Below are positions 8,894-50,798 of a stretch of DNA of 64,000 bases, in pieces. The translations under genes and the position numbers were made by a program. The stretch is from Enterobacteria phage vB_EcoM_IME540. Numbering within the stretch: position 1 is the first letter of the stretch; each line of letters opens with the position of its first letter. Where the stretch lies: the sequence record MT150133.1. One strand, given 5' to 3'. The notes beneath the pieces were generated by a model. That model was not told where the DNA came from. It saw nothing but the letters and a program-made list of their open reading frames with translations, and ran no database searches.

Positions 8894-10218
8894 AGAGCCT
8901 CCAAATCTTTAACATACTCAGTTACCACATCAGTGGTTTTCCAGTATTGATGCTCTTCTTTCTTAGCCTTGGCTTCGAGGGCCAGTTTCTTGGCTTCATC
9001 GGATGTGATATGGAAAATGTTCATGGCCACTAGTTTATCGGCATATTCGCCATAGACTTTATTACCAGCCAATTCCTCAGTTAAAACCTTACGGGTCTTA
9101 CCTTGGATAACTACAGTCCCATCAATAACATCTTTGATAAATGTAGCTTTAGCCAATGCTAGTTTAAAAGCTTCTTCGGTTTCGATGATTTTACCATCAA
9201 TACGTTTTTGTACAAAGGTCTTACGGACCTCAACGAAATCACGAATCAGTTCAACTGCATCTTCGTAAACCTTAAGCTTACCTTTTTCATTAATGACGGT
9301 CAGGTTTTGTGAACGACGTTCGATTAACCCGAAGTCCTTCATGAGTTTTTCGTGTTTCTTATCTTCATCAGTAGGCAATTCGTATTCTTTACGAATCTTA
9401 ACCTTGAAGCCAAAACCGTTCTCATCACAGTCATCATCATATGTGATATACCCTTTGTCTTCCAGAGGGTCTAATATCTTAGCCACATATGTTTCACGGT
9501 CATATTTGTACGGGATTTCCGTGATATGCATTTGGGTTCGGGATGTGAACTTATACGTTCCACGAATCTCATAACTACCAGGTTCAATCTCAACAACATC
9601 ACCGCGGAATTCAGGATAAGCCACTTTGGGTTTGGTTACTCGTTTTTCCTGAAGAATTTGCAGTACAGCTTTCTTAACAGAATCAAAACTATGAGGAAGA
9701 ATATTAGTTGCATAACCAGTTGCAATACCGGAAACGCCATTAAGAAGAACAGTAGGAATAATAGGCAGATAAAAAGCCGGTGGCTTATGTTCAACATCCG
9801 CATGAACCGGAGCATATTCTGTGTCCTTATAAACTTTTGCAAAGTTACTTCCAATACGAGCAAAAATATAACGAGAGGCTGCAGCTTTTTGAACCAATCG
9901 GGAACCAAAGTTACCTTGACCGTCTAACAATGGATAGTTGTTGTTCCATGTGTTAGCCATCAAAGCCCCTGCTTCCTGAGCAGAACCTTCACCGTGGTGA
10001 TATCCGAGGTCGGCTACACCACCAGCGATAGAAGCCAGTTTGTGGAATTTTTCTTTATTACCACGAGCCATATCAAGACAACGAGCCACTACAAAACGTT
10101 GTACAGGTTTAAAGCCATCAATCATATTTGGAATGGCTCGGTTTTCGACAGTATACATTGCATAAGCCAATGCTTCGTTGTCGATAATACTTTTTAAACC
10201 ACGAGATGTTAATTCCAT
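8890..10218 (-). CDS. 52: DNA topoisomerase II medium subunit gp52 (GyrA-like)
   Basis: 442 aa; near-identical over long stretches to recalled T4 gp52 (LKSIIDNEALAYAMYTVENRAIPNMIDGFKPVQRF, GNFGSR.VQKAAASRYIFAR). Confidence 0.97.
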   Translation of the reverse strand: MELTSRGLKSIIDNEALAYAMYTVENRAIPNMIDGFKPVQRFVVARCLDMARGNKEKFHKLASIAGGVADLGYHHGEGSAQEAGALMANTWNNNYPLLDGQGNFGSRLVQKAAASRYIFARIGSNFAKVYKDTEYAPVHADVEHKPPAFYLPIIPTVLLNGVSGIATGYATNILPHSFDSVKKAVLQILQEKRVTKPKVAYPEFRGDVVEIEPGSYEIRGTYKFTSRTQMHITEIPYKYDRETYVAKILDPLEDKGYITYDDDCDENGFGFKVKIRKEYELPTDEDKKHEKLMKDFGLIERRSQNLTVINEKGKLKVYEDAVELIRDFVEVRKTFVQKRIDGKIIETEEAFKLALAKATFIKDVIDGTVVIQGKTRKVLTEELAGNKVYGEYADKLVAMNIFHITSDEAKKLALEAKAKKEEHQYWKTTDVVTEYVKDLEAL

Positions 10219-28539: not shown

Positions 28540-29058
28540 TTAATAACCTCGGTCCTGGCGAGCAAAGTTCTCGGCATTTTTCAGATAATACAGTTTAAAG
28601 ATTTCTTCAGCAGTCAGACCAAGACCTTGGAACATATTCAGAACGAAATGGAGAATATCGATCATTTCAAATTTAATTTCGAGCTGGTCTTCAGGAGACA
28701 AATCGTTAATCAAGGTTTCACGACGTTCAGCATGCTGAGCTTTCCAAGGCTTCCATACTGCTGATGCATCTTTTTCACCATTGCTCATACCACCAAGAGA
28801 AGTCAGAAGTTCACGGAATTCATCATCAATATAATCTTTCTGATTACGCAGCCAATCAACAACTTCACCTGCAGTAGCCAAATCATCAGGATGACGGTTG
28901 TATTCAGGTTTATCTTTAGATAAACGGACCTGTAATGATTTCTGCATATCAAGCATAACCTGCAGAGGGTCTTTATCTTCATGAATCAGAGCATTAAAAT
29001 AAGCTTCCTCAGCTTTATCAACACCAGCAATTAGGTTTGCGCATTCGTTAAAGTGTGC
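28540..29058 (-). CDS. 56: dCTPase/dUTPase gp56 (MazG-like)
   Basis: Matches recalled T4 gp56 (MAHFNECA.LI.GVDKA, DPLQVMLDMQ, CIDDEFRELLTSLG, EEIFKLYYLKN.ENFARQDRGY); track ORF has an upstream alternative start. Confidence 0.92.
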   Translation of the reverse strand, partial: AHFNECANLIAGVDKAEEAYFNALIHEDKDPLQVMLDMQKSLQVRLSKDKPEYNRHPDDLATAGEVVDWLRNQKDYIDDEFRELLTSLGGMSNGEKDASAVWKPWKAQHAERRETLINDLSPEDQLEIKFEMIDILHFVLNMFQGLGLTAEEIFKLYYLKNAENFARQDRGY

Positions 29059-29151
29059 CATTATATTTTTCCTTTTCAATTCATTAGTAAGTTAGATAAT
29101 TATAAACTGTTAGATTAAAGCGAATAAATATTAATTTAACAGGAGGATAAC

Positions 29152-34185: not shown

Positions 34186-34499
34186 CTCTTAGATTTAATT
34201 TTATCCAGTTCTTCTTGTATTTGCATTGTAACACATTTTTCTACATGAAGCGCTAGCTCTTCTTTTCGGTCTTCGGAAGGTGTTCCGAAATCAACCGACA
34301 CTTTTCCATCTTTCTCAATAACAATATTCATCACATAAACGATGTGAGCAGTGCCATCGGGTAAAGTAAGCATAATTTCCTGCTTAACCGATCCCATTGA
34401 CTTACGGATTATATCTAATGATTTCTCATAATAACGAGGGTCACTAGGACCCTCTTCGGTATCTTTAACGAAATTATCTAAATCAGATAAATCAGTCAT
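34170..34499 (-). CDS. 40: hypothetical protein in the gene 40 position
   Basis: 109 aa between uvsX and 41, the T4 uvsX-40-41 arrangement; sequence identity to T4 gp40 not verified. Confidence 0.55.
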   Translation of the reverse strand: MTDLSDLDNFVKDTEEGPSDPRYYEKSLDIIRKSMGSVKQEIMLTLPDGTAHIVYVMNIVIEKDGKVSVDFGTPSEDRKEELALHVEKCVTMQIQEELDKIKSKRWWKW

Positions 34500-35664
34500 C
34501 TAAATCCATCTCTTCCAAATCGTTTTCGATATCAGCGGCGCTTTGGGCATTACCACCTAATTTAACAGCAACGTTCTTAGAGACACGAGAGTTAATAAGG
34601 TCGTTCACTGCATCGTCAACTTCTTTAATAGAATTAATTGCACCGAGCTTATACTTATTCTCGATTGCTTCACGGAACGGGGCATGTTTAAACAGCGGTC
34701 CCCAGAACTCGACACAATCGGTAGCTTTAGCACGCCATGCTTTTTCTTCTTGAACCATTTCGCCTGTGGTTTCGTCAAGGAATGCACGATTATACCAGCC
34801 AGCTTTAGGTTTCACGACAAAGCCAATATCAGTAGCCATTTCAAGCAATCCACTGAATGGGTCGATACCACCTTCGAAGTTAACGGTGATAGGGAACGTT
34901 GATTTCTCTTTAACCGTACGAGATTTCTCAGCCTTCAGTGTGAAGTCATAACCAGTGAGCTCGGTACCATCTTTAACCTGACGTTTAGAGATAAAGAACA
35001 CGGTAGAAGCAGAGTACAGAATACCAGTACCACCACCCATAATCTCTTTAGGATACATTCCACCAATTTCCATAGCCGTGTGGTTGATTGCTACACAAGG
35101 GATATCTTTGATAGTCAGATAAGGTGTTACGATACGGAACAGAGATTTCAGTGACTTAGCACGGGTCATATCACCTACAACTTTCTCGTTCAAAGCATCT
35201 TCGGTTTCTTTCTTAGAAGCAGTGTTACCAATGGAGTCGATAAAGATAATAACCTTTTCGCCACGAGTAATTTCTTCTAACTGGTTGGTCATATCAACTT
35301 TAAGCTGTTCGACTGACTGGATTGGTGTATGAACCACACGTTCCAAATCAACACCCATCGAACGGAAATAAGATTCTGAAGCACCAAACTCAGAGTCATA
35401 GAACAAACAAATTGCGTCTGGATATTTCTTCATATATGCCGCAACCATGGTAAGTCCAAACAACGTTTTAAAGTGTTTAGATGGAGCAGCAAAGATTGTC
35501 AAACCTGATTGTAAGCCTGCATTCAACGCACCGCCTAATGCAATATTCAGCATAGGGATACGAGTAGGAACTTCGTCACGACCATTAAACAATTTAGATT
35601 TGGTCAGGTCGGCGGTCATTTTAGAAGTAGAAGCTTTAATCAAACGGGATTTTAAATCAGACAT
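34492..35664 (-). CDS. uvsX: UvsX recombinase (RecA-like)
   Basis: 390 aa; near-identical N-terminus to recalled T4 UvsX (MSDLKSRLIKASTSK), Walker A region, NEKVV.DMTRAK..KSLFRIVTPY. Confidence 0.97.
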   Translation of the reverse strand: MSDLKSRLIKASTSKMTADLTKSKLFNGRDEVPTRIPMLNIALGGALNAGLQSGLTIFAAPSKHFKTLFGLTMVAAYMKKYPDAICLFYDSEFGASESYFRSMGVDLERVVHTPIQSVEQLKVDMTNQLEEITRGEKVIIFIDSIGNTASKKETEDALNEKVVGDMTRAKSLKSLFRIVTPYLTIKDIPCVAINHTAMEIGGMYPKEIMGGGTGILYSASTVFFISKRQVKDGTELTGYDFTLKAEKSRTVKEKSTFPITVNFEGGIDPFSGLLEMATDIGFVVKPKAGWYNRAFLDETTGEMVQEEKAWRAKATDCVEFWGPLFKHAPFREAIENKYKLGAINSIKEVDDAVNDLINSRVSKNVAVKLGGNAQSAADIENDLEEMDLDD

Positions 35665-35741
35665 TATATTTTTCCATAGGCATCATTATATTTTACTCAC
35701 GTTTTAAGATAGGGTAATTATATCACTTCACATTTACAGCG

Positions 35742-36635
35742 TTAAAGGACCACGTCCTCATAACTTGGCATTTCGTGCTCAGAATGGATGTGGGCACCGA
35801 AATAAATGAATTCAGCCAGACCAGGATGGAATACTAAACTGGGATTCTCATGATAAATGATATGAGGTCTTGATTTCAGAATCTGATAATATTCAACCTT
35901 ACTCGGTTTGAATTTAATAATCTCTACATCAGGACGATGGTCTTCACGCTTAAATGAATCATTCGGATCGGTGATATAAAGGCGAGAACCTTCAGCCGCA
36001 GCTTGGTCTACAACTCTTTCGAATTGATAGCATTTATCTGAGATACGGAATGGATGGAAAATACCATCAATTTTAATAGGCGCTAGACCTTCAGAGTAAC
36101 GCTCAATTACTGCGGGATTAATTACCTTTTGGTCTACAAAAATCTTATCAGAGGACGCACCTCGTGACACCAGGACGTCTTTCTGACATTGATTCAAGAC
36201 TGTAGTATAAATCGAACGTTCAACTGAGGACACGTCGGTATCAATAAACTCGTCGATATAATAACGAGGAACTTCAGGGTCCATTGTAATGTTAAAGTTG
36301 AATTGTACAGTCTGAGTGCCATCATAACCTGTGATATCGGTTACCAATCCTGAGCAGTCATAGTATTCGATTAACGAATCAACAACGAACTCGTTTTCAG
36401 ACCAAAAATGTTTACGAGTTTCATAAGCATTTTCTTTATACCAAAGCGGTACAAAATTCAGTTCAGGAAATAATTCAATGCATTCTTTGATATCGCTCGA
36501 ATTTCTAGGATAAGCCAGATAATCACCTGGGCAAGCACGGTTTAAATGGAGTTGAAAATTACCGTCCTTAAGGACGGCATATTCACCTGTTTCGTAACTA
36601 CGCATACTGAAAATAGGAACGATAAACAAACTCAT
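35742..36635 (-). CDS. hypothetical protein in the beta-glucosyltransferase slot; candidate DNA-sugar transferase
   Basis: 297 aa between uvsX and 42 where T4 has bgt; no similarity to recalled T4 beta-GT; ATG overlaps gp42 stop (ATGA); function inferred from context only. Confidence 0.4.
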   Translation of the reverse strand: MSLFIVPIFSMRSYETGEYAVLKDGNFQLHLNRACPGDYLAYPRNSSDIKECIELFPELNFVPLWYKENAYETRKHFWSENEFVVDSLIEYYDCSGLVTDITGYDGTQTVQFNFNITMDPEVPRYYIDEFIDTDVSSVERSIYTTVLNQCQKDVLVSRGASSDKIFVDQKVINPAVIERYSEGLAPIKIDGIFHPFRISDKCYQFERVVDQAAAEGSRLYITDPNDSFKREDHRPDVEIIKFKPSKVEYYQILKSRPHIIYHENPSLVFHPGLAEFIYFGAHIHSEHEMPSYEDVVL

Positions 36636-37330
36636 TTCAGGAATCCTCGAACGTAGTCAAAATCACGTTCAAATACGTGTGCACTAACCATAGTATGGGA
36701 ATACGTACCCAGACCAACACCACACTGTTCAGCAATAAAGGCCATCAGTTTACCCTGCAGATAGAAATCCAGCTGCATAACAATAGCACAGTTCTGTGAA
36801 CGCATATGGGTATGTGCATAAAGACGTCCATCACGAATATAATATGTCACTGAATCAGTACATGGATATTCTAAGGATTCGTCAGAATCAAGGAGGGCTT
36901 GGTCTTGTTCTTGGAGAATTTGGAACACAACTCGTCTTGAGTTAGGCTTCTCTTTAAGCTCTTTAAGTAAGGCTGGGAGTTGGGCCACAATTCTAGGTCC
37001 ATAGAAAGTGTTGAAGTTTGCAGGCAATACGTCACTTTTCGGCTTATCAATGAACTTAGCAACATTAGGGTATTCCTTAAATGCTTCGGCGGCGTCAGTA
37101 CCACCAGAAATCATAAACTTCCAGAAAGATTCGGCATAATCATAGTTGATACGATTAATACGAGGGTCGGTGAATTTATAGGTGCTTGCATCCAGTACTT
37201 CTACCGAAGCAGAACCAATTTCATAACAACAGCCGATACGAGAATCAACTGCAAACTGTGGAGCTTCCAGGATTTCTTCGTTCATTTGCTTAAACGCGTT
37301 TTCAAAACTAACAGCGGTAATGTGTTTCAT
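36632..37330 (-). CDS. 42: dCMP hydroxymethylase gp42 (thymidylate-synthase fold)
   Basis: 232 aa; TS-family core PCTDSVTYYIRDGRLYAHTHMRSQNCAIVMQLDF parallels T4 gp42 MCTNTVQYLIRDKKINAVVNMRSNDVVFGFRND; SD AAGGTGA. Confidence 0.8.
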   Translation of the reverse strand: MKHITAVSFENAFKQMNEEILEAPQFAVDSRIGCCYEIGSASVEVLDASTYKFTDPRINRINYDYAESFWKFMISGGTDAAEAFKEYPNVAKFIDKPKSDVLPANFNTFYGPRIVAQLPALLKELKEKPNSRRVVFQILQEQDQALLDSDESLEYPCTDSVTYYIRDGRLYAHTHMRSQNCAIVMQLDFYLQGKLMAFIAEQCGVGLGTYSHTMVSAHVFERDFDYVRGFLK

Positions 37331-37863
37331 TTATTCACCTTATTTTCAATATATTCATTCAGACGTTTTAATTCTACCATATCGACGTTAAGCAAGTTAT
37401 TATGGCCGTCGTGATTTAAGATTTTAAACACGTTTTCAAAACATGTTTCATATTGCCGGATAGTTAGGTTGAACTCATCTTTGGTTAATTTAATAAGGTC
37501 ATCTTCAAAGTCTTTATCCAGTGGATTACGGGTTAAAATAACCTCAATAATATTGAATTCAGATTTAAACCCTTTCCAATCTTCCAGTTCTACATAAGGG
37601 TCCATTTCACCACGAAGGAATCCAGAGTAAACAATATTACTAGGATACCCACGGTCTAAGATGTAGACAAAATTAGGGTCTAAAAACTTATACAACGTCT
37701 CGACTAAAGCCTTGTCATTATCAGTCCCTAATGAAATGCATTTGCCATTAATCTTTTTAGGGAAATCAATAAGACGATATTTCTTATCAGATAAAAGTGA
37801 TTCAATTAAAGTAGACTTCCCGGAATTATCCGGGCCGTCGATAACAATGATTTTTGGTTTCAC
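37327..37863 (-). CDS. P-loop kinase, thymidylate-kinase-like
   Basis: 178 aa; Walker A IVIDGPDNSGKST and TMPK-like LDRGYPSNIVYSG; GTG start overlapping the upstream stop (GTGA); no early in-frame ATG. Confidence 0.65.
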   Translation of the reverse strand: MKPKIIVIDGPDNSGKSTLIESLLSDKKYRLIDFPKKINGKCISLGTDNDKALVETLYKFLDPNFVYILDRGYPSNIVYSGFLRGEMDPYVELEDWKGFKSEFNIIEVILTRNPLDKDFEDDLIKLTKDEFNLTIRQYETCFENVFKILNHDGHNNLLNVDMVELKRLNEYIENKVNK

Positions 37864-38219
37864 GGATGATATGCCTTATAGGTTTCAAGAGTTCCTTCAC
37901 GAACCATTTCTTTAAAGTGGTCAGGACGGATTGCTCGGTCATCGATGATAAAAGTATAACTCGGCTTATGTGTAAGCAGATTGTGATATTTCAATCCAAT
38001 CTTTTCAAGGTTCTTAACTAATGCAGGAACTACTTCAACCAAGATTCGACCTGGGCCGCATGAAGTCATACCACGGGCAGTGAACAAGGTAATCTCGTAC
38101 CCTTCATCATAAAGCTTATTAATCACGGACACCATTTCGGTGTCCGGTTTAAAGTTTTCGTAATCACGGTCATCTTGCCAGTGAGTAATGGTATTATCGA
38201 TATCAAAACACAGATGCAT
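37860..38219 (-). CDS. HAD-superfamily phosphatase
   Basis: 119 aa; HAD motif I FDIDNTIT near N-terminus; ATG overlaps upstream stop (TAATG). Confidence 0.65.
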   Translation of the reverse strand: MHLCFDIDNTITHWQDDRDYENFKPDTEMVSVINKLYDEGYEITLFTARGMTSCGPGRILVEVVPALVKNLEKIGLKYHNLLTHKPSYTFIIDDRAIRPDHFKEMVREGTLETYKAYHP

Positions 38220-39892
38220 TAAATTTTCTTCCATTGTTTGTGGAGTTCGGTAGAACCTGTAGGTTTATATTTTACACCAGTTTCCTGGTCAAGCAAAACC
38301 CACTTATCAGGACAACGAGTGATAATTTGAGCCGTGATAGGGTCGCGAACTTCATCAACGAATTCACCTGTGATAAGCTTACGCTTACGAGGATGCCGCT
38401 TCAGCAGCACACTCAGTTGATATAGCCCATTGTAATAAGCGCCCAGAGCTTTCAGAGGGTTATTTTTAAAGTAACCTGCCAATGCCATCCAGATAACAGC
38501 AATCCAGAGCTTGTGCTTAAATGTACACATCGGAATATCATCTAAAGGCATAACCTTTTCAATATCAACGAATACACGAGTTCCGTTACGAGTTAAGCCA
38601 CCCCATAGAGGGTCAGAGTTAAATTTGTCATAACCATCGATAGAATAAAGCACCTTAGCTTCATCATAAATCGCAGGGCCTTTAGAACTATTACCAAAAT
38701 AACCACGTGGGTCGATGATTTTAATATTACCTTCGTCCGACAACATAATATTACTGTAGTGCGGGTCGCCATGAATAAGTTGGTACGGTTCTTTATGTTC
38801 AGACAGAATTTCTAAGGCGTGACGAAGAAGTTTTTCTGGGTCGCCTACCTTGAAGTCGTTAACATGGGTAATACCCTGTGGAGCAAAGCCTTCAATCAAT
38901 CCGGCAATAGAAGCATTACGAATAAGGACCTTGTCCAATACTTCTTTCTTAACATCAGAATACCATTGCTCATCGGATGGATTATCGATAGTTCCACCGA
39001 ATGAACGTAATGCACTAATGACCTTATAAACCATGAGGACTTTAGTTTCTTTAGACATAAACCGATAGGCGTCTGCCATGGTGCGACCAAAGATACGTTC
39101 CATTTTAATGAATTCACCTGGAGCAAAGTCTACAATGCTAGGAACGAATTCAGAATCAATAGAATTGTACCAATTGATTTCTTTAGATTGGATTTCTTTA
39201 CCTAATTCGTTTGTAGGTACTTTAATAGCTAGATTCTCAGTGAACTCTAATTTATTAAATTCACGGTTAATTTCAGAATCTTCATGGGCCTTAGCCAGTT
39301 TCAGTTTGTCACCAACATCAACTACAAAGTCTAACTTACGTTCAGTCAAATGGACCATTGAATCCAGGTTGTCAGCAAGGTCTTCACCATAATTAGAACG
39401 GTCGAAACCTGTCCAATTAGCCACCTGATACAAGCCAACTACGCCACCACCGGTACCAATTTCACGCAAGTACGGTTCTTCAAATGTAAAACGACAGTCA
39501 GTCCCATAGGTATAACAGTAGTCGTTATCCCACTCAACTTTATGACCTTCAGGAATAATATCACACCAGTTAAACAAGACATTGTGCCCAATGATATCTT
39601 CGGCAATGCAATCGATAGCATGAGCCGAACCATTGGCAACATCAACGTTACGAATAGTGAATTTAGGCTTATCACTATTAATCATGTTAATGGATTTAAT
39701 ATAGCCTTTAACGAGGTCGTTAAATTTGCTGTGAATAACCAGAATAATTTCATCTGATTGATTACTATACAAATCATACAAATGTTTTAATACAGTATGT
39801 TGTTTGTAGTTAACCAGTACCTTCGGGATTTCGTTGGTAATTGGATACAACCGTGAGCCAAGACCCGCGCCTAAAATAACAACCTTTTTCAT
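38219..39892 (-). CDS. bifunctional protein: N-terminal sugar-phosphate nucleotidyltransferase, C-terminal APH/choline-kinase-like kinase
   Basis: N-terminus VVILGAGLGSRLYPITNEIPKVLV fits the G-x-G-x-R-x-P...PK signature; C-terminus LIHGDPHYSNIML ... IKIIDPRG fits a protein-kinase-like fold; start at ATG MKKVVIL after SD GAGGAA. Confidence 0.7.
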   Translation of the reverse strand: MKKVVILGAGLGSRLYPITNEIPKVLVNYKQHTVLKHLYDLYSNQSDEIILVIHSKFNDLVKGYIKSINMINSDKPKFTIRNVDVANGSAHAIDCIAEDIIGHNVLFNWCDIIPEGHKVEWDNDYCYTYGTDCRFTFEEPYLREIGTGGGVVGLYQVANWTGFDRSNYGEDLADNLDSMVHLTERKLDFVVDVGDKLKLAKAHEDSEINREFNKLEFTENLAIKVPTNELGKEIQSKEINWYNSIDSEFVPSIVDFAPGEFIKMERIFGRTMADAYRFMSKETKVLMVYKVISALRSFGGTIDNPSDEQWYSDVKKEVLDKVLIRNASIAGLIEGFAPQGITHVNDFKVGDPEKLLRHALEILSEHKEPYQLIHGDPHYSNIMLSDEGNIKIIDPRGYFGNSSKGPAIYDEAKVLYSIDGYDKFNSDPLWGGLTRNGTRVFVDIEKVMPLDDIPMCTFKHKLWIAVIWMALAGYFKNNPLKALGAYYNGLYQLSVLLKRHPRKRKLITGEFVDEVRDPITAQIITRCPDKWVLLDQETGVKYKPTGSTELHKQWKKI

Positions 39893-39952
39893 TATCTGTT
39901 CCTCAAGTGAATGTAGGTACATTATACACTATTTTTAATAAATTGGTATTGC

Positions 39953-40453
39953 TTAAATCTTATCTTTACCGATTTCAATACACTGTTCTATTGCCGCCGG
40001 TGCTTTGGTCTTGAGCTTATCGATTTGTTTCTTATAATCACGAGCTTTACCGAAGCTCTCGGTTTCGAGCATTTCGTAATAACGAGCCTCGTGGATGGAA
40101 ATCTGTAGATTGATATGGTTTACGCACATCGCATACAGTTTCTGCTTTTTGTACAAATCATCTTGACGCTTCATTTCTGCCTGGTGTTTGGCTAGTACCG
40201 CTTCACGCTTGGACTCTTGTTCACGTTGGAATTCGATTTCTTGTTGAGCATATTTTGCACAGTTATTACCGCATTGATTATTAGCTCGGGTGTACACAAG
40301 TCCAGAACCTGCACGGAATTTCATTTCGCCATCGAATTGTTTCTGTTCAGCTGCGATACGAGCTTTACCAACTTCATCGGCCGAAACTGTATCACCATAT
40401 TGGACCGCGCAACCTGATAGGAGCATACTCATTGCGATAATTAACTTTTTCAT
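39953..40453 (-). CDS. predicted lipoprotein (166 aa), coiled-coil rich
   Basis: Signal MKKLIIAMSMLLSGC with lipobox LLSGC; lies two genes downstream of imm; SD GAGGA. Confidence 0.65.
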   Translation of the reverse strand: MKKLIIAMSMLLSGCAVQYGDTVSADEVGKARIAAEQKQFDGEMKFRAGSGLVYTRANNQCGNNCAKYAQQEIEFQREQESKREAVLAKHQAEMKRQDDLYKKQKLYAMCVNHINLQISIHEARYYEMLETESFGKARDYKKQIDKLKTKAPAAIEQCIEIGKDKI

Positions 40454-40460
40454 AATATCC

Positions 40461-40598
40461 TCAATTAAAACAGTTATACTTAATTTGTGCTATAAGAATA
40501 ATCCATCCAATGATGAGTGTCGGAATCATTGGGGGAATTGCCACTGCCCAATAAATGGTAAAGGCAGTCATTATAAGAAATAAAATAATTATTTTCAT
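40461..40598 (-). CDS. small hydrophobic peptide (45 aa), translationally coupled to imm
   Basis: ATG overlaps imm TGA stop (ATGA); MKIIILFLIMTAFTIYWAVAIPPMIPTLIIGWIILIAQIKYNCFN; its stop sits within the lipoprotein SD. Confidence 0.45.
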   Translation of the reverse strand: MKIIILFLIMTAFTIYWAVAIPPMIPTLIIGWIILIAQIKYNCFN

Positions 40599-40831
40599 TG
40601 CTTAACAATAATGATTTGTGCGTTTGATTTACGTTCAGCGACGATAGCCCAGATTAAAGCCACTACCCAACCAATCATCGTCCAGCCTAACAGGAGATTA
40701 AGGAAGAAAATTCCGACATTACTACGAGTGCCTCGCAGAAGAGCCAGAATCCATGGTAAAAAGTAACCGATGAACATAATAACCAGAGAACCGAATCCTA
40801 AAACACCAGCACTAACGATTAAAGCTTCCAT
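40595..40831 (-). CDS. imm: superinfection immunity protein Imm-like membrane protein
   Basis: 78 aa, two predicted TM helices, motif LLGWTMIGWVVALIWA; located between 42 cluster and 43 as T4 imm; call rests on motif memory and position. Confidence 0.65.
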   Translation of the reverse strand: MEALIVSAGVLGFGSLVIMFIGYFLPWILALLRGTRSNVGIFFLNLLLGWTMIGWVVALIWAIVAERKSNAQIIIVKQ

Positions 40832-40861
40832 TGTAATTTCCTCATGTAGTTGATAGGAAGG

Positions 40862-40891
40862 ATACTACCACGTTCCTTGTGGTATGTAAAC
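40862..40891 (-). promoter_or_regulatory. early promoter (-35 GTTTAC, 18 nt, -10 TAGTAT)
   Basis: Overlaps the 3' end of gene 43; leader CCTTCCTATCAACTACATGAGGAAATT. Confidence 0.55.
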
Positions 40892-40893
40892 AC

Positions 40894-43605
40894 TTAAAAG
40901 TCGAACATATCAAATAATGTTGCTTTTTTCTCGTAGTCGATTTTAGCAGACTCAGTAAAACCGGTCAGAGGTTTGATAAAGGTCTTTTGGAACAGTACGT
41001 TGTAGTCCATCCAACGGAGGACTTGGTCACGAATCTGAACCGGAAGTTCAATACCTGACGGCCATGCCATACAAGCTTCACCAAACGGGTTGCCTTCTTT
41101 AAGTGGCAGTACATATACCTTTTCACCATCAACGATACGAGGCATAGTCAAATCACCTGCAGAAGCACGCATGTAAGCTAAGCAACCTTTGATGTGGTAT
41201 GGACATTTAGAACCCGGGAATCCACCTTCATTATATTTCTCGATGTTGTTAGCACTGGATACTGCTGCAATGCTTACATAATCGAGTTCGTTAAATTCCT
41301 TATTAAACTGTTTGAAATATTCTTGCAAAGATGCCTCGCCTTCCTGAAGCATACGACGGATACATTCCTTCAGAGCTTTCTGAACTGCTTTAGGTGTACT
41401 TGATTTCTGAGTTTCGAGACCCATGATTTTCAAGTGTGGTTCAGCATAACGAGTACCTTCCATGTCCCAAACGTTAAGTGCATAACGTTTCTTGCCTGTC
41501 CAGAATCCACCAAGGCCTTTAGAACCAAGTGGAGGACCTGCGATAGCTTCTCGGTCCATGAACATCAAGTGTTGTTTGTTGTTCATGTATTCGCACATCT
41601 CACGGAAGCCTGCATCAATAGCTGGTTCCATACGTTCACGTGCAAATTTATCTAAGAAGTCTACCCAGTGGTTAGTATCACGGAATTTATCTTCGCCTAC
41701 TTTATTGATGATTGCATCTGCCTTAACATAAATGGAGTCAGTATCACCGTAGAGCACGAACTTCTGGTTTTCAGTCTTACACACGCTATTCAGATATTCG
41801 TTAACCTTACGTTCAATCCATTGGAGGGCCATTTGACCAAACAATGTGATTGCAGTTGCGTTCCTGAGGTCATAGTAACGGAACCATACGTTACCAAGTG
41901 CACCATAAAGGGAGTTGATAAGCAACTTACGGTTAATCTGAGCAGTGTTACCTGCAACTTCAGTGAGCTCGGCTTTCTTCAACATTTCTCTTAAAGAAGG
42001 CGCTGACAGTGCTTTAATCTGGGCTTTTATTTCGTCAGAGAAGTCAAAACGATAATCGATATCCAGTGGACTATCAACTGAGAGATTAGGATTTTCCAAT
42101 GCTTCTTTAATTAACTCACCATTACGTTGAGCTGCAAGCATGTAACCTTTATGTTCTTTACGCTGCAAGAATACCTTGGTGATTTCTGTCGGAATCACAC
42201 CTTCACGGTCTTTATAGTACATCATGCCGTTAGGAGAGCAACTGTAGGTGTCGCTAGGACGCTGAGCAGTTCCGGCAATATATTCATGTATCGGTGCGTT
42301 AGCGAATGTCCCTGCGATGGTCTCTGGGCTTATATTCACTTGTCGAATGATACTCGGATACAGAGATGTAAGGTCGAAACTCATTACATATTTGTAAGCG
42401 TTAGGAATCGGTTCCTTAACGAAAGCACCAGGATAAGGTTGGACCACGTGCGAACGAGCTTGTGGAATTACCTTGCCTTGTTCTTTAAGGCTATTAAAGA
42501 TAATAGCGTCCCAAGTCTTAATTGGGCTGAACACCGACTGAATCTGCATCTTGGCATAATAACCCATGTCCAAACTCAGAAGAATGAACTGACGCTTCAT
42601 ATCAATCTGCACTACACGATATACGTCGATAATGTTATAGGAAATATATCGTTGGTGGTTCGTCTCACGTAACTTGGAGATTGGGCCATCATATTTCAAC
42701 TTACCTACTTTCAATTCATATTCAGAAACATAATCCAGAGAATAAGAAGGCTGGTTGGTGAAGCTGAATTTTTTATAGAGGTCGATATAATCCAGAACAG
42801 AGATACCGAACAATGTAATGATTTCACGAGCACCGTACATGTTCTCAATAACTTTAACACGAGTTTTACGATGTGGGCTTAATCGCTTAGCAGTGTTCTC
42901 ACCGAACAGATTTTTCAGACGGTTATAAACGTACGGTACGTCAAACGACTCAACGTTCCATCCAGTCAAAATCACAGGAGTTTTCTGTTGCCAGAAATTC
43001 AAGTACTCAAGCATCATTTCTTCTTCAGAATTAAACGGAAGATAAACGATTTTGTCAATGATTTCCTGTGGAACTTCGTCACCACCTTCGTCTTGGAGTT
43101 TCTCAGCGATTTTAATCGACCACTCTTCAACAGTACCATAAGGCGAAACTAAAAGGTCGAATACATAGAATTTATCGTCAATCGAGTCGTAGTGGGTAAT
43201 GGCATCGATAGGATGTTTAGCCTGAGCTGGTTCAGGGAATCCATCAGGAGATGTTACCTCGATGTCGAAGTTAGCAATACGAATCTTAGAAGAATCATAT
43301 TTGATTTCTTTACGATAGGTATCAGACAAATAGGCTAATTTATAGTCGTCCATACCCAGGGCTTCGAGACCCATATCATCCATACGTTTCATCCATTGGG
43401 ATGCATCACGCATAGAATCGAATTCTTTCTTAACACAACCCTTACCATAGATATCAATGTATTTTACGGCTTGCTCTGGATTAGCATGCATAAACATTGT
43501 AGGCTTGTATGGAACTTCACGACTACGTTCGTTACCATTTTTATCGATGTAACGTTCGAGAATATTATCACCGATTTGTTCGACTGTCAAATAGAATTCT
43601 TGCAT
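40894..43605 (-). CDS. 43: DNA polymerase gp43 (family B)
   Basis: From ATG MQEFYLTVEQIGDNILERY; long near-identical stretches to recalled RB69/T4 gp43 (FDIEVT exo motif, SLYPSIIRQVNISPETI, YGDTDS, KKRYALNVWDMEG); track ORF extends 20 codons further upstream. Confidence 0.97.
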   Translation of the reverse strand: MQEFYLTVEQIGDNILERYIDKNGNERSREVPYKPTMFMHANPEQAVKYIDIYGKGCVKKEFDSMRDASQWMKRMDDMGLEALGMDDYKLAYLSDTYRKEIKYDSSKIRIANFDIEVTSPDGFPEPAQAKHPIDAITHYDSIDDKFYVFDLLVSPYGTVEEWSIKIAEKLQDEGGDEVPQEIIDKIVYLPFNSEEEMMLEYLNFWQQKTPVILTGWNVESFDVPYVYNRLKNLFGENTAKRLSPHRKTRVKVIENMYGAREIITLFGISVLDYIDLYKKFSFTNQPSYSLDYVSEYELKVGKLKYDGPISKLRETNHQRYISYNIIDVYRVVQIDMKRQFILLSLDMGYYAKMQIQSVFSPIKTWDAIIFNSLKEQGKVIPQARSHVVQPYPGAFVKEPIPNAYKYVMSFDLTSLYPSIIRQVNISPETIAGTFANAPIHEYIAGTAQRPSDTYSCSPNGMMYYKDREGVIPTEITKVFLQRKEHKGYMLAAQRNGELIKEALENPNLSVDSPLDIDYRFDFSDEIKAQIKALSAPSLREMLKKAELTEVAGNTAQINRKLLINSLYGALGNVWFRYYDLRNATAITLFGQMALQWIERKVNEYLNSVCKTENQKFVLYGDTDSIYVKADAIINKVGEDKFRDTNHWVDFLDKFARERMEPAIDAGFREMCEYMNNKQHLMFMDREAIAGPPLGSKGLGGFWTGKKRYALNVWDMEGTRYAEPHLKIMGLETQKSSTPKAVQKALKECIRRMLQEGEASLQEYFKQFNKEFNELDYVSIAAVSSANNIEKYNEGGFPGSKCPYHIKGCLAYMRASAGDLTMPRIVDGEKVYVLPLKEGNPFGEACMAWPSGIELPVQIRDQVLRWMDYNVLFQKTFIKPLTGFTESAKIDYEKKATLFDMFDF

Positions 43606-49175: not shown

Positions 49176-50194
49176 CGTGTAACCTCATTATAAAGTTGTG
49201 CAGCCATGGTCTTAAGGGCTTTAACATCGTCTTCAGTGTGGCCGTCAGGAAGGGCATCGATATAATCATACATCATATCCAAGAGGGACTTGACTTCATC
49301 TTCCTCTTCAGAATCATCGATATCAACACTGTTATCTACCTTAGACACAATACGTAAAGAATGGACGACCTTTTCAAGCTCTGATTCGAACTTGGTAAGC
49401 CCGTCATCAATTTTATCGACTATAACACGAACCGCAATATTTGTAAAATCTTTGTAATCGATAGTCGCATTCGGATAATGAATCTTACGATGCCAACAAG
49501 TTTCATTGATGATGAAATCCATTTTATGGGTTTCTGTATCGAAAATCCAGAAGCCACGAGGGTCGTTCTCATCACCTGCAGTCAGGGTCCATGGCGTACC
49601 AATATACTTAACGTTTGCTGCATCAGAAATAGTGTGGAAGTGCCCAGACCATACCTGCTTATACTTCTTAAGGAAATCAGGTTCTAAACCATGAGATTTC
49701 ATTCCTTTATAGAAATAGAAACCATTTAATTCCCAGTGACCTATACAGAAATCTGCTGTGGTATTTTTGATATGGTCCATGATATCGGTCGTGTTTTCTT
49801 CACACATCCATGGAATCAAATCAATTTCGGTGCCATCAAAGTTAACCGTAGTGGGTTTCTCAATAACCTTGATATGGTCATATTTACCCAGAACTTCAGA
49901 AGCAGCGTTCGGTGTCAAGGTATTTTTGTAGTGGGCATCGTGGTTGCCTACGACAGTATACATGGTAATGCCGTTGGTTTTAAGCAAATCTGAAATATGT
50001 CTAGCAAATTCCATGCACTTATGAGTAATTGCTTTACGAACATCAAATATATCACCGTACTGAATCCATACAGTAATGCCATTTGCTTTAGAATAATTGA
50101 TGGCATCTTTGATGCCGGCCAATTGGATGTTTTGCACCCAAGGGTCGTCGTTCTTCACTCCAAGGTGCCAGTCACCCGTATTAAGAATTTTCAT
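49172..50194 (-). CDS. 47: recombination endonuclease subunit gp47 (Mre11/SbcD-like)
   Basis: Calcineurin-like phosphoesterase motifs (ILNTGDWHLG, GDIFD, VVGNHD, GHWE); track ORF extends 24 codons upstream of the likely ATG MKILNTGD. Confidence 0.92.
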   Translation of the reverse strand: MKILNTGDWHLGVKNDDPWVQNIQLAGIKDAINYSKANGITVWIQYGDIFDVRKAITHKCMEFARHISDLLKTNGITMYTVVGNHDAHYKNTLTPNAASEVLGKYDHIKVIEKPTTVNFDGTEIDLIPWMCEENTTDIMDHIKNTTADFCIGHWELNGFYFYKGMKSHGLEPDFLKKYKQVWSGHFHTISDAANVKYIGTPWTLTAGDENDPRGFWIFDTETHKMDFIINETCWHRKIHYPNATIDYKDFTNIAVRVIVDKIDDGLTKFESELEKVVHSLRIVSKVDNSVDIDDSEEEDEVKSLLDMMYDYIDALPDGHTEDDVKALKTMAAQLYNEVTR

Positions 50195-50798
50195 TACGTA
50201 TTCGTTCCCACATTTTGGAGGCTGCTTTAGAAGCAGAGCCAGGAAGTTTACCTTTGACCCACCCATCAGGAATATTAGATGGGTTAATCAGTTTATGTTC
50301 TATTCCGTTATTATACCACTTCCTGCCCTTATTATGACTAGATGCTTTATAATTAGGTGAACGACCTTCTACGTATCCTTCCGGGACTGTAGGTGCAAAG
50401 GTTTGTTCCAATGTAACAGGATTATAGGAATGAATATACCCTTTAGCATTATGAGAGCCGTAAAGAGGGTGTTGCTCTTTAGGTAGCGAAAGCCCAAAGA
50501 ATCCTTTAGGAGCTGCGACAGCCCTATTAAAGAATAGAGGATTTTGGGCCGCATCGGTTCTTAACTGGTACATTCTTTCAGCTTCTAAAGCCTCTTCTCT
50601 TGTAGGGTGTTCACTTACAATACACGAGTCAAATAATTCTGGATGCTCTAAAAGCTCATTTTTATAGATTTCTTTATATGCTTTAGAAAGGACACTCCCG
50701 TGATATCCTTTTAAATGCTTCTCTAAAGTGGTAGACCCTATATAAAACGGTGGAAGCTTAGTCCCGGAATATATTGTCAGGTATGTGATGTATTTCAT
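50181..50798 (-). CDS. GIY-YIG family homing endonuclease (Seg-like)
   Basis: N-terminal YITYLTIYSG...PFYIGST with downstream conserved R/E and N; C-terminal NUMOD3-like NKGRKWYNNGIEHKLINPSNIPDGWVKG. Confidence 0.65.
   Translation of the reverse strand: MKYITYLTIYSGTKLPPFYIGSTTLEKHLKGYHGSVLSKAYKEIYKNELLEHPELFDSCIVSEHPTREEALEAERMYQLRTDAAQNPLFFNRAVAAPKGFFGLSLPKEQHPLYGSHNAKGYIHSYNPVTLEQTFAPTVPEGYVEGRSPNYKASSHNKGRKWYNNGIEHKLINPSNIPDGWVKGKLPGSASKAASKMWERIRNENS
50181..50798 (-). mobile_element. free-standing homing endonuclease gene inserted between genes 47 and 55
   Basis: Seg-type endonuclease ORF at a locus that in T4 carries a-gt and mob/seg elements; bounded upstream by a terminator. Confidence 0.5.

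Follow-up and report, generated by a model that had tools for sequence, protein, structure and literature searches.

The closest described counterparts of the five-gene module studied here, at positions 35742-39922 of a 64,000-nucleotide stretch of Enterobacteria phage vB_EcoM_IME540 (MT150133.1; this whole stretch is called the window), are the gene clusters that arabinosylate the DNA of phages RB69, HY126 and DLP3. The modified base of RB69 DNA was first reported as arabinosyl-hydroxymethylcytosine (PMC6024577), and has since been corrected to an ether-linked arabinosyl-5-hydroxycytosine by nuclear magnetic resonance (NMR), mass spectrometry (MS) and 18O2 labelling (PMC13326640; PMC13390438). 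RB69 gp48 and DLP3 gp80 turn deoxycytidine monophosphate (dCMP) into 5-hydroxy-dCMP with O2 and flavin (Lee et al. NAR 2026, PMC13326640); the substitution D169N marks this hydroxylase branch, and nine further D169N enzymes were active (PMC13326640). For the sugar, AfhE and AfhF of HY126 are reported to build uridine diphosphate (UDP)-arabinofuranose from arabinose-5-phosphate, as relayed by PMC13326640. Thomas et al. (2018) had earlier proposed the fusion protein and the isomerase of such clusters as UDP-arabinose enzymes, with IME08 gp43, from a Dhakavirus, as a full-length homologue (PMC6024577); a 2021 survey catalogued these genes across Tevenvirinae, and dhakaviruses are listed among the groups with a syntenic arabinosylation cluster (Lee et al. 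2026, PMC13326640). Older reviews credit JS98 with an allele of gene 42 and list no glucosyltransferase for it. He et al. (Nat Chem Biol 2026) and Mahler et al. (Cell Host Microbe 2025) reportedly describe the biochemistry and the biology of the systems of HY126, Bas46/47 and others.

At about 99.5% identity, the window closely matches Escherichia phage QL01/WG01 (JS98/Bp7/IME08 group, genus Dhakavirus), and its five genes very probably encode, in a Dhakavirus form, the pathway to arabinosyl-5-hydroxycytosine that RB69, HY126 and DLP3 possess. We base this reading on the orthology of all five proteins, over their full lengths, with proteins of the RB69/HY126 cluster, together with the hydroxylase signature, intact catalytic motifs, GT-B fold matches, a retained cytosine-exclusion set and the lack of any other recognisable glycosyltransferase in the window or QL01. 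Because each protein has strong homologues (E values of 1e-30 to 1e-140), the module is no chance arrangement. The system is one already described in related phages (2025-2026). An initial annotation, made from the window's letters without database searches, recognised the module correctly as a hypermodification system standing in for the T4 glucosyltransferases, as the five orthologues of the RB69/HY126 cluster now bear out, and misassigned one enzyme. It also took the enzymology to be uncharacterised, a view overtaken by the characterisation of the RB69, DLP3 and HY126 enzymes (PMC13326640).

The misassigned enzyme is the 232-aa protein, which had been named the thymidylate synthase (TS)-fold hydroxymethylase gp42. 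Its fold was confirmed by a Thymidylat_synt domain (PF00303, E=6e-14), whereas its identity as gp42 was not, since it is 78.8% identical to the HY126 enzyme and 78.4% identical to RB69 gp48, versus 25% to T4 gp42 (over 159 residues). Among PDB sequences, 9IQU, 9IQC and 9IR2, whose sequence is that of the HY126 gene product, matched with E values of about 1e-124 (9IQU, 1.7e-124), and the T4 dCMP hydroxymethylase (1B49) with 4e-6. Alignment with E. coli ThyA, T4 gp42, RB69 gp48 and the HY126 enzyme, read in ThyA numbering, located the catalytic cysteine (C157, equivalent to C146), an acidic residue at position 143 (E154; L143E) and the dCMP-specifying aspartate (D188; N177D). At position 169, where ThyA and T4 gp42 (D171) carry aspartate, the window protein has asparagine (N180, in the motif MRSQN), and the folate-site tryptophan (W80) is replaced by A91, so that none of the hallmarks of a gp42-type enzyme (Asp169, W80 and close similarity to gp42) is present. 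By homology and these residues, the 232-aa protein is a predicted flavin- and O2-dependent dCMP 5-hydroxylase and not a gp42-type hydroxymethylase. With a 5-hydroxy-dCMP synthase in place of gp42, the acceptor base would be 5-hydroxycytosine and not the hydroxymethylcytosine first suggested, which had relied on the since-corrected RB69 report. In two jumbo-phage contigs, we noted Flavodoxin_2 genes (NAD(P)H-dependent flavin reductase-like; L011 6426-6932 and L012 1-523) just 5' of D169N TS homologues, an arrangement that fits a hydroxylase in need of reduced flavin; the window phage, having no such gene, presumably uses a host flavin reductase.

In the pathway that we propose, the gp56 dCTPase would convert deoxycytidine triphosphate (dCTP) to dCMP and keep unmodified cytosine out of DNA, as homology and T4 biology suggest, and the TS-fold enzyme (79% identity, diagnostic residues) would hydroxylate dCMP at C5 with flavin and O2 to yield 5-hydroxy-dCMP. 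The gp1 deoxynucleoside monophosphate (dNMP) kinase, possibly with the thymidylate kinase (TMK)-like kinase of the module, and the host nucleoside diphosphate (NDP) kinase would then make the triphosphate, which the gp43 polymerase would build in instead of dCTP; RB69 gp1 accepts 5-hydroxy-dCMP (PMC13326640), and a gp1 homologue is present in QL01. Starting from D-arabinose-5-phosphate provided by host KdsD/GutQ, the kinase domain of the fusion would phosphorylate C1, the HAD phosphatase would then take off the 5-phosphate, and the nucleotidyltransferase domain would join arabinofuranose-1-phosphate and uridine triphosphate into UDP-arabinofuranose. Finally, the 297-aa GT-B enzyme would put arabinofuranose on the 5-hydroxyl, leaving an ether-linked sugar in the major groove, and the resulting mono-arabinosylated DNA would block type I-III restriction and some CRISPR nucleases. 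The genome keeps a cytosine-exclusion set of gp56, denA, denB and alc, which is consistent with full cytosine replacement, and its DNA polymerase, earlier judged RB69-like, is 83% identical to that of RB69 versus 61% to that of T4.

The 297-aa protein had been left as an unrecognised product in the beta-glucosyltransferase slot, and indeed it had no match in Pfam, NCBIfam or PDB sequences, while its gene occupies the T4 beta-gt position between uvsX and gene 42. Structure prediction followed by a fold search, as the initial annotation had advised, revealed a GT-B fold where sequence searches alone gave nothing, with top matches (3c4q and 6kih) that are those reported for RB69 gp46:47 (PMC13326640 Table 1). 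The protein is 66.7% identical to the HY126 299-aa protein, and genes of this type adjoin the TS homologue here and in contigs L011 and L012. It is, on its predicted structure, a GT-B glycosyltransferase of the RB69 gp46:47/DLP3 gp79 family, and is proposed to be the first, base-proximal arabinosyltransferase, acting from UDP-arabinofuranose on 5-hydroxycytosine. We found no alpha-gt or beta-gt homologue and no RB69 gp3-type second transferase by tblastn in the window or the whole QL01 genome, in agreement with the original observation that no glucosyltransferase homologue lies at uvsX-42 or 47-55. The rIIA-gene 39 slot, the site of RB69 gp3, holds only open reading frames (ORFs) of up to 118 aa, and the canonical alpha-gt slot (gene 47 to a-gt.2/gene 55) holds an HNH endonuclease (50184-50798, minus strand) that overlaps the end of gene 47. 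A small a-gt.2-like ORF is still present though a-gt is gone. A Pfam scan of 10 large uncharacterised QL01 proteins gave no glycosyltransferase domain, with half of them lacking any Pfam match, which makes a cryptic transferase possible. Since a single transferase is encoded, we predict mono-arabinosylated 5-hydroxycytosine, the state of Thanatos, which likewise has a single syntenic transferase (PMC13326640).

As first described, the 178-aa protein is a TMK-like P-loop kinase with a GTG start; it matched phrog_761 (E=2e-39), carries the P-loop GPDNSGKS, and is 36.7% identical to RB69 gp45, aligned from residue 3. Three contigs (383, 356 and 26 kb) that encode distant relatives of the 297-aa protein were examined for gene context. 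The first has, in this order, a flavodoxin-like gene, a TS homologue (53% identical, with RSQN), the transferase (37.5%) and a TMK-like kinase (36%); genes for sugar activation are lacking within 8 kb of the triad. The second has the full arabinose set plus an isomerase. In the 26-kb contig (L013, Logan SRR22071707), genes for a TMK-like protein, the transferase and a U32-like protein (9049-10125, 51% identical to that of HY126) stand side by side, and no TS homologue lies within 8 kb of them. Adjacent hydroxylase, transferase and kinase genes are also found in DLP3 and in the hexose-using RL38J1 (PMC13326640). Because in distant phages the kinase gene keeps company with those of the hydroxylase and transferase, we take it to encode a nucleotide kinase outside sugar activation, and its substrate is probably modified dCMP. 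A role in the sugar pathway was rejected, since the fusion already carries a sugar kinase and the gene follows the hydroxylase and transferase, not the sugar genes, contrary to its initial placement in the NDP-sugar set. The U32-like protein of the reference clusters (RB69 gp50, L001 6493-7662; HY126, L003 10142-11302) has no counterpart in the window. The U32 family includes O2-independent C5 hydroxylases of RNA and ubiquinone (RlhA, TrhP and UbiU/V), and by analogy this protein could provide an alternative or anaerobic route to 5-hydroxycytosine.

The retention of the hydroxylase-transferase-kinase triad across distant phages whatever their sugar genes, and the ability of gp1 to handle 5-hydroxy-dCMP already, leave room for a variant of the pathway in which the first arabinose is added before replication. 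In that case, which we hold possible and rather unlikely, the 297-aa transferase would glycosylate 5-hydroxy-dCMP, the TMK-like kinase would phosphorylate the bulky arabinosyl nucleotide, beyond the capacity of the general gp1 dNMP kinase on this view, and the polymerase would use a glycosylated dCTP analogue. If true, this would be a mode unlike classical phage DNA glycosylation, all of which is, to our knowledge, post-replicative. Room for it is also left by Lee et al., who saw no activity of single transferases on DNA with 5-hydroxycytosine and whose data cannot tell nucleotide-level from DNA-level first addition (PMC13326640).

The fusion has an NTP_transferase domain (PF00483, residues 13-110; RmlA/MurU-like) and an APH domain (PF01636, residues 356-427; an APH/choline-kinase-like kinase), which upholds its earlier description as a sugar-phosphate nucleotidyltransferase joined to a kinase. 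Its motifs GAGLGSRL (GxGxRL type), HGDPHYSN (HxDxxxxN type) and DPRG are intact, and it matched phrog_4098 (E=5e-269, with the alignment beginning at residue 11) and HY126 AfhE (full-length alignment of 576 columns, 42.7% identity, E=4e-143). The start at 39922 assumed earlier did not hold up as well: that ATG lies inside a TATAAT box, a GAGGA Shine-Dalgarno sequence (39904-39900) lies ahead of the one at 39892, and the alignment with every homologue begins at residue 11, so that the gene most likely starts at 39892 (557 aa). We predict the fusion to be an arabinose-5-phosphate 1-kinase and UDP-arabinofuranose pyrophosphorylase, its specificity being read from homologues at 43% identity. The HAD protein, rightly recognised at the outset as a small phosphatase, has the catalytic motif I DIDNT (DxDxT), is 62.3% identical to the HY126 and RB69 proteins, and matched PDB 9IQW (E=2e-53), 1XPJ (E=6e-12) and TIGR01689, a capsule biosynthesis phosphatase (E=2e-14); it is predicted to strip the 5-phosphate from arabinofuranose-1,5-bisphosphate. 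Its start is ambiguous, as the ATG at 38234 gives 124 aa with an N-terminal E-E-N-L that aligns with HY126, and the TAATG start at 38219 used in RefSeq for QL01 gives 119 aa. Neither an arabinose-5-phosphate isomerase nor a U32-like gene was found by tblastn in the window or the whole QL01 genome; it is the lack of a phage isomerase that points to host KdsD/GutQ as suppliers of D-arabinose-5-phosphate. E. coli itself makes this compound for the synthesis of 3-deoxy-D-manno-octulosonate (Kdo).

The adenosine diphosphate (ADP)-heptose pathway (HldE plus GmhB), originally offered as an analogy, shares the reaction logic of C1 phosphorylation to a bisphosphate, removal of the distal phosphate by an HAD enzyme and nucleotidyl transfer to an NDP-sugar, and HldE and the fusion are both bifunctional kinase-transferase polypeptides. 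The likeness does not extend to the domains, which are APH and NTP_transferase here and ribokinase-like and cytidylyltransferase-like in HldE, are not homologous, and stand in reversed order.

Homology to the HY126 and RB69 enzymes makes arabinose, the sugar of RB69, the most likely one, in keeping with the pentose that was guessed at first. The same architecture could instead carry another pentose or deoxypentose, xylose-like as suggested for Thanatos, and so form a non-arabinose glycoside of 5-hydroxycytosine, as might be argued from the identity of only 42.7% between the fusion and AfhE, from the phage's lack of an arabinose-5-phosphate isomerase, and from Thanatos, whose authors gave a 300-aa protein UDP-xylose pyrophosphorylase activity and reported a deoxypentose mass (PMC12838424). 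Hexoses occur in other 5-hydroxycytosine phages, for example RL38J1. We nonetheless consider a different sugar improbable, because the phosphatase and the transferase, which of all the enzymes have the most direct contact with the sugar, share 62% and 67% identity with those of HY126, and because the host has arabinose-5-phosphate at hand from Kdo synthesis. Thanatos, moreover, is classed as mono-arabinosylated by Lee et al. (PMC13326640).

We give very little credence to a gp42-type dCMP hydroxymethylase that would place the sugar on hydroxymethylcytosine, in spite of the gene's position in the gene-42 slot between imm and uvsX, the gene 42 allele ascribed to JS98-type phages in older reviews and the original report of arabinosyl-hydroxymethylcytosine in RB69 (PMC6024577): the protein shares 25% identity with T4 gp42 (159 residues) versus 79% with proven hydroxylases, gp42 D171 is N180 here and the folate-site tryptophan is alanine, and RB69 itself has been corrected to 5-hydroxycytosine through NMR, MS and 18O2 labelling. 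A non-DNA target for the fusion and HAD protein, such as a host surface polysaccharide with bare 5-hydroxycytosine left in the DNA, is suggested by the resemblance of the HAD protein to capsule biosynthesis phosphatases (TIGR01689, and the depositor's name for PDB 9IQW) and by one jumbo-phage contig that has the triad with no sugar genes nearby, yet it is highly unlikely given that translational coupling joins the five genes, a GT-B transferase among them, into one unit, that this gene set accompanies fully arabinosylated DNA in RB69, HY126 and DLP3, and that nothing with a membrane or export function is linked to the cluster.

Several points weigh against arabinosylation as proposed here. The fusion, at 42.7% identity to AfhE, and the TMK-like kinase, at about 36% to its counterparts in characterised phages, could differ in sugar or nucleotide specificity, and the functions of AfhE and AfhF are themselves cited second-hand, via PMC13326640. 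The module is without the isomerase and U32-like gene of RB69 and HY126, and its gene order differs. We found no published chemical analysis of any Dhakavirus DNA in the literature, and single transferases had no activity on 5-hydroxycytosine DNA, the first transfer not having been reconstituted (PMC13326640).

Compared with the clusters of RB69 (gp45-gp55) and HY126 (Afh), the window module shares the site, between the DNA polymerase gene and uvsX, five protein families with 36-79% identity over full lengths, and both the hydroxylase signature residues and the GT-B fold matches. Present in RB69 and not in the window are the isomerase gp55, the U32-like gp50, the small ORFs gp49 and gp54, and gp3, a second transferase encoded in the rIIA-gene 39 slot. 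The order is fusion, HAD, kinase, hydroxylase, transferase in the window and fusion, HAD, U32, hydroxylase, transferase, kinase in RB69 and HY126, and, unlike in those phages, imm and a lipoprotein-like gene separate the polymerase gene from the cluster. A similarly minimal layout is found in Shewanella phage Thanatos (TH1_060 to TH1_063, PMC12838424), with a fusion, a TS homologue and one transferase that is about 300 aa long; mono-arabinosylated according to PMC13326640, it shows the state predicted for the window phage, although it has another host, belongs to a distant lineage, and is likened here by its published description. The glucosylation system of T4 is alike in that a TS-superfamily enzyme modifies dCMP before replication, a dCTPase keeps dCTP out and the sugar is attached by a GT-B enzyme, and the T4 genes for gp42 and the glucosyltransferase have a map position in common with the module. 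In contrast, T4 uses folate-dependent hydroxymethylation and host UDP-glucose, whereas the module is predicted to use flavin/O2 hydroxylation, with a phage-made donor and a sugar ether-linked to the C5 oxygen; there is no sequence homology to alpha-GT or beta-GT, and 25% identity to gp42.

The module consists of five minus-strand ORFs in the program's ORF list for the window (Table 1). The five ORFs, their coordinates and their overlaps agree with the initial annotation, which had placed them alone between uvsX and imm; a sixth gene, the lipoprotein-like ORF, also lies there, and upstream of the module this ORF is followed by imm and by the gene for DNA polymerase. On the coding strand, three junctions read as 4-base overlaps (GTGA, ATGA and ATGA) and the fusion/HAD junction is TAATG or a 16-nt overlap, a pattern of a translationally coupled unit.

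Table 1. Positions in the window of the module genes and of associated features.
Feature	Position	Strand	Remarks
Predicted glycosyltransferase, 297 aa	35742-36635	-	GT-B fold; ortholog of RB69 gp46:47 and HY126 299-aa protein
Predicted dCMP 5-hydroxylase (5-hydroxy-dCMP synthase), TS fold, 232 aa	36632-37330	-	Identity to HY126/RB69 enzymes and signature residues
TMK-like P-loop nucleotide kinase, 178 aa, GTG start	37327-37863	-	phrog_761; ortholog of RB69 gp45
Small HAD-family phosphatase, 124 aa	37860-38234	-	Ortholog of HY126 AfhF and RB69 gp51; DIDNT motif
Nucleotidyltransferase/APH-like kinase fusion	38219-39892, frame open to 39922 (567 aa)	-	Ortholog of HY126 AfhE and RB69 gp52:53
TATAAT box, possible -10 element for the five-gene unit, 5' of fusion	39921-39926	-	Consensus match only, by eye
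gp56 dCTPase/dUTPase homologue	28543-29061	-	98% identity to QL01 gp027 (annotated gp56 dCTPase)
uvsX, downstream of module	34492-35664		Adjoins transferase gene
Lipoprotein-like ORF, 166 aa	39953-40453	-	Between module and imm

A sigma-70 and terminator scan of 35500-41000 gave no more sites than shuffled sequence, and found no -35 partner for the TATAAT at 39926-39921. One promoter-like site (35717-35745, minus strand; TTAACG, 17-nt spacer, TATAAT and a TG extension) falls in the 77 nt that separate the stop codon of the transferase gene from uvsX and suggests a putative promoter for uvsX itself, in a scan that was overall no richer than shuffled sequence. The 166-aa ORF has an N-terminus that resembles a lipoprotein signal (MKKLIIAMSMLLSGC), falls into phrog_1754 (unknown function), and is missing from the corresponding interval of RB69 and HY126.

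In the annotation of QL01 (L002 20143-24293) and in other Dhakavirus records, the hydroxylase is named 'thymidylate synthase' and the kinase 'thymidylate kinase', and in public records the HAD phosphatase appears as 'phosphoheptose isomerase' and the transferase and fusion each as 'hypothetical protein'. For the JS98/Bp7/QL01 group, these labels should be read as a 5-hydroxycytosine arabinosylation pathway. The DNA of these phages, themselves therapy candidates, is expected to resist many restriction enzymes, to hinder Cas9-based engineering and to be open to attack by type IV systems, for example BrxU/GmrSD. What the window adds to the systems already described is a natural minimal version, in which five genes, with a single transferase among them, do without a phage isomerase and a U32-like gene, which suggests the essential parts of the pathway and predicts mono-arabinosylation that depends on host arabinose-5-phosphate.

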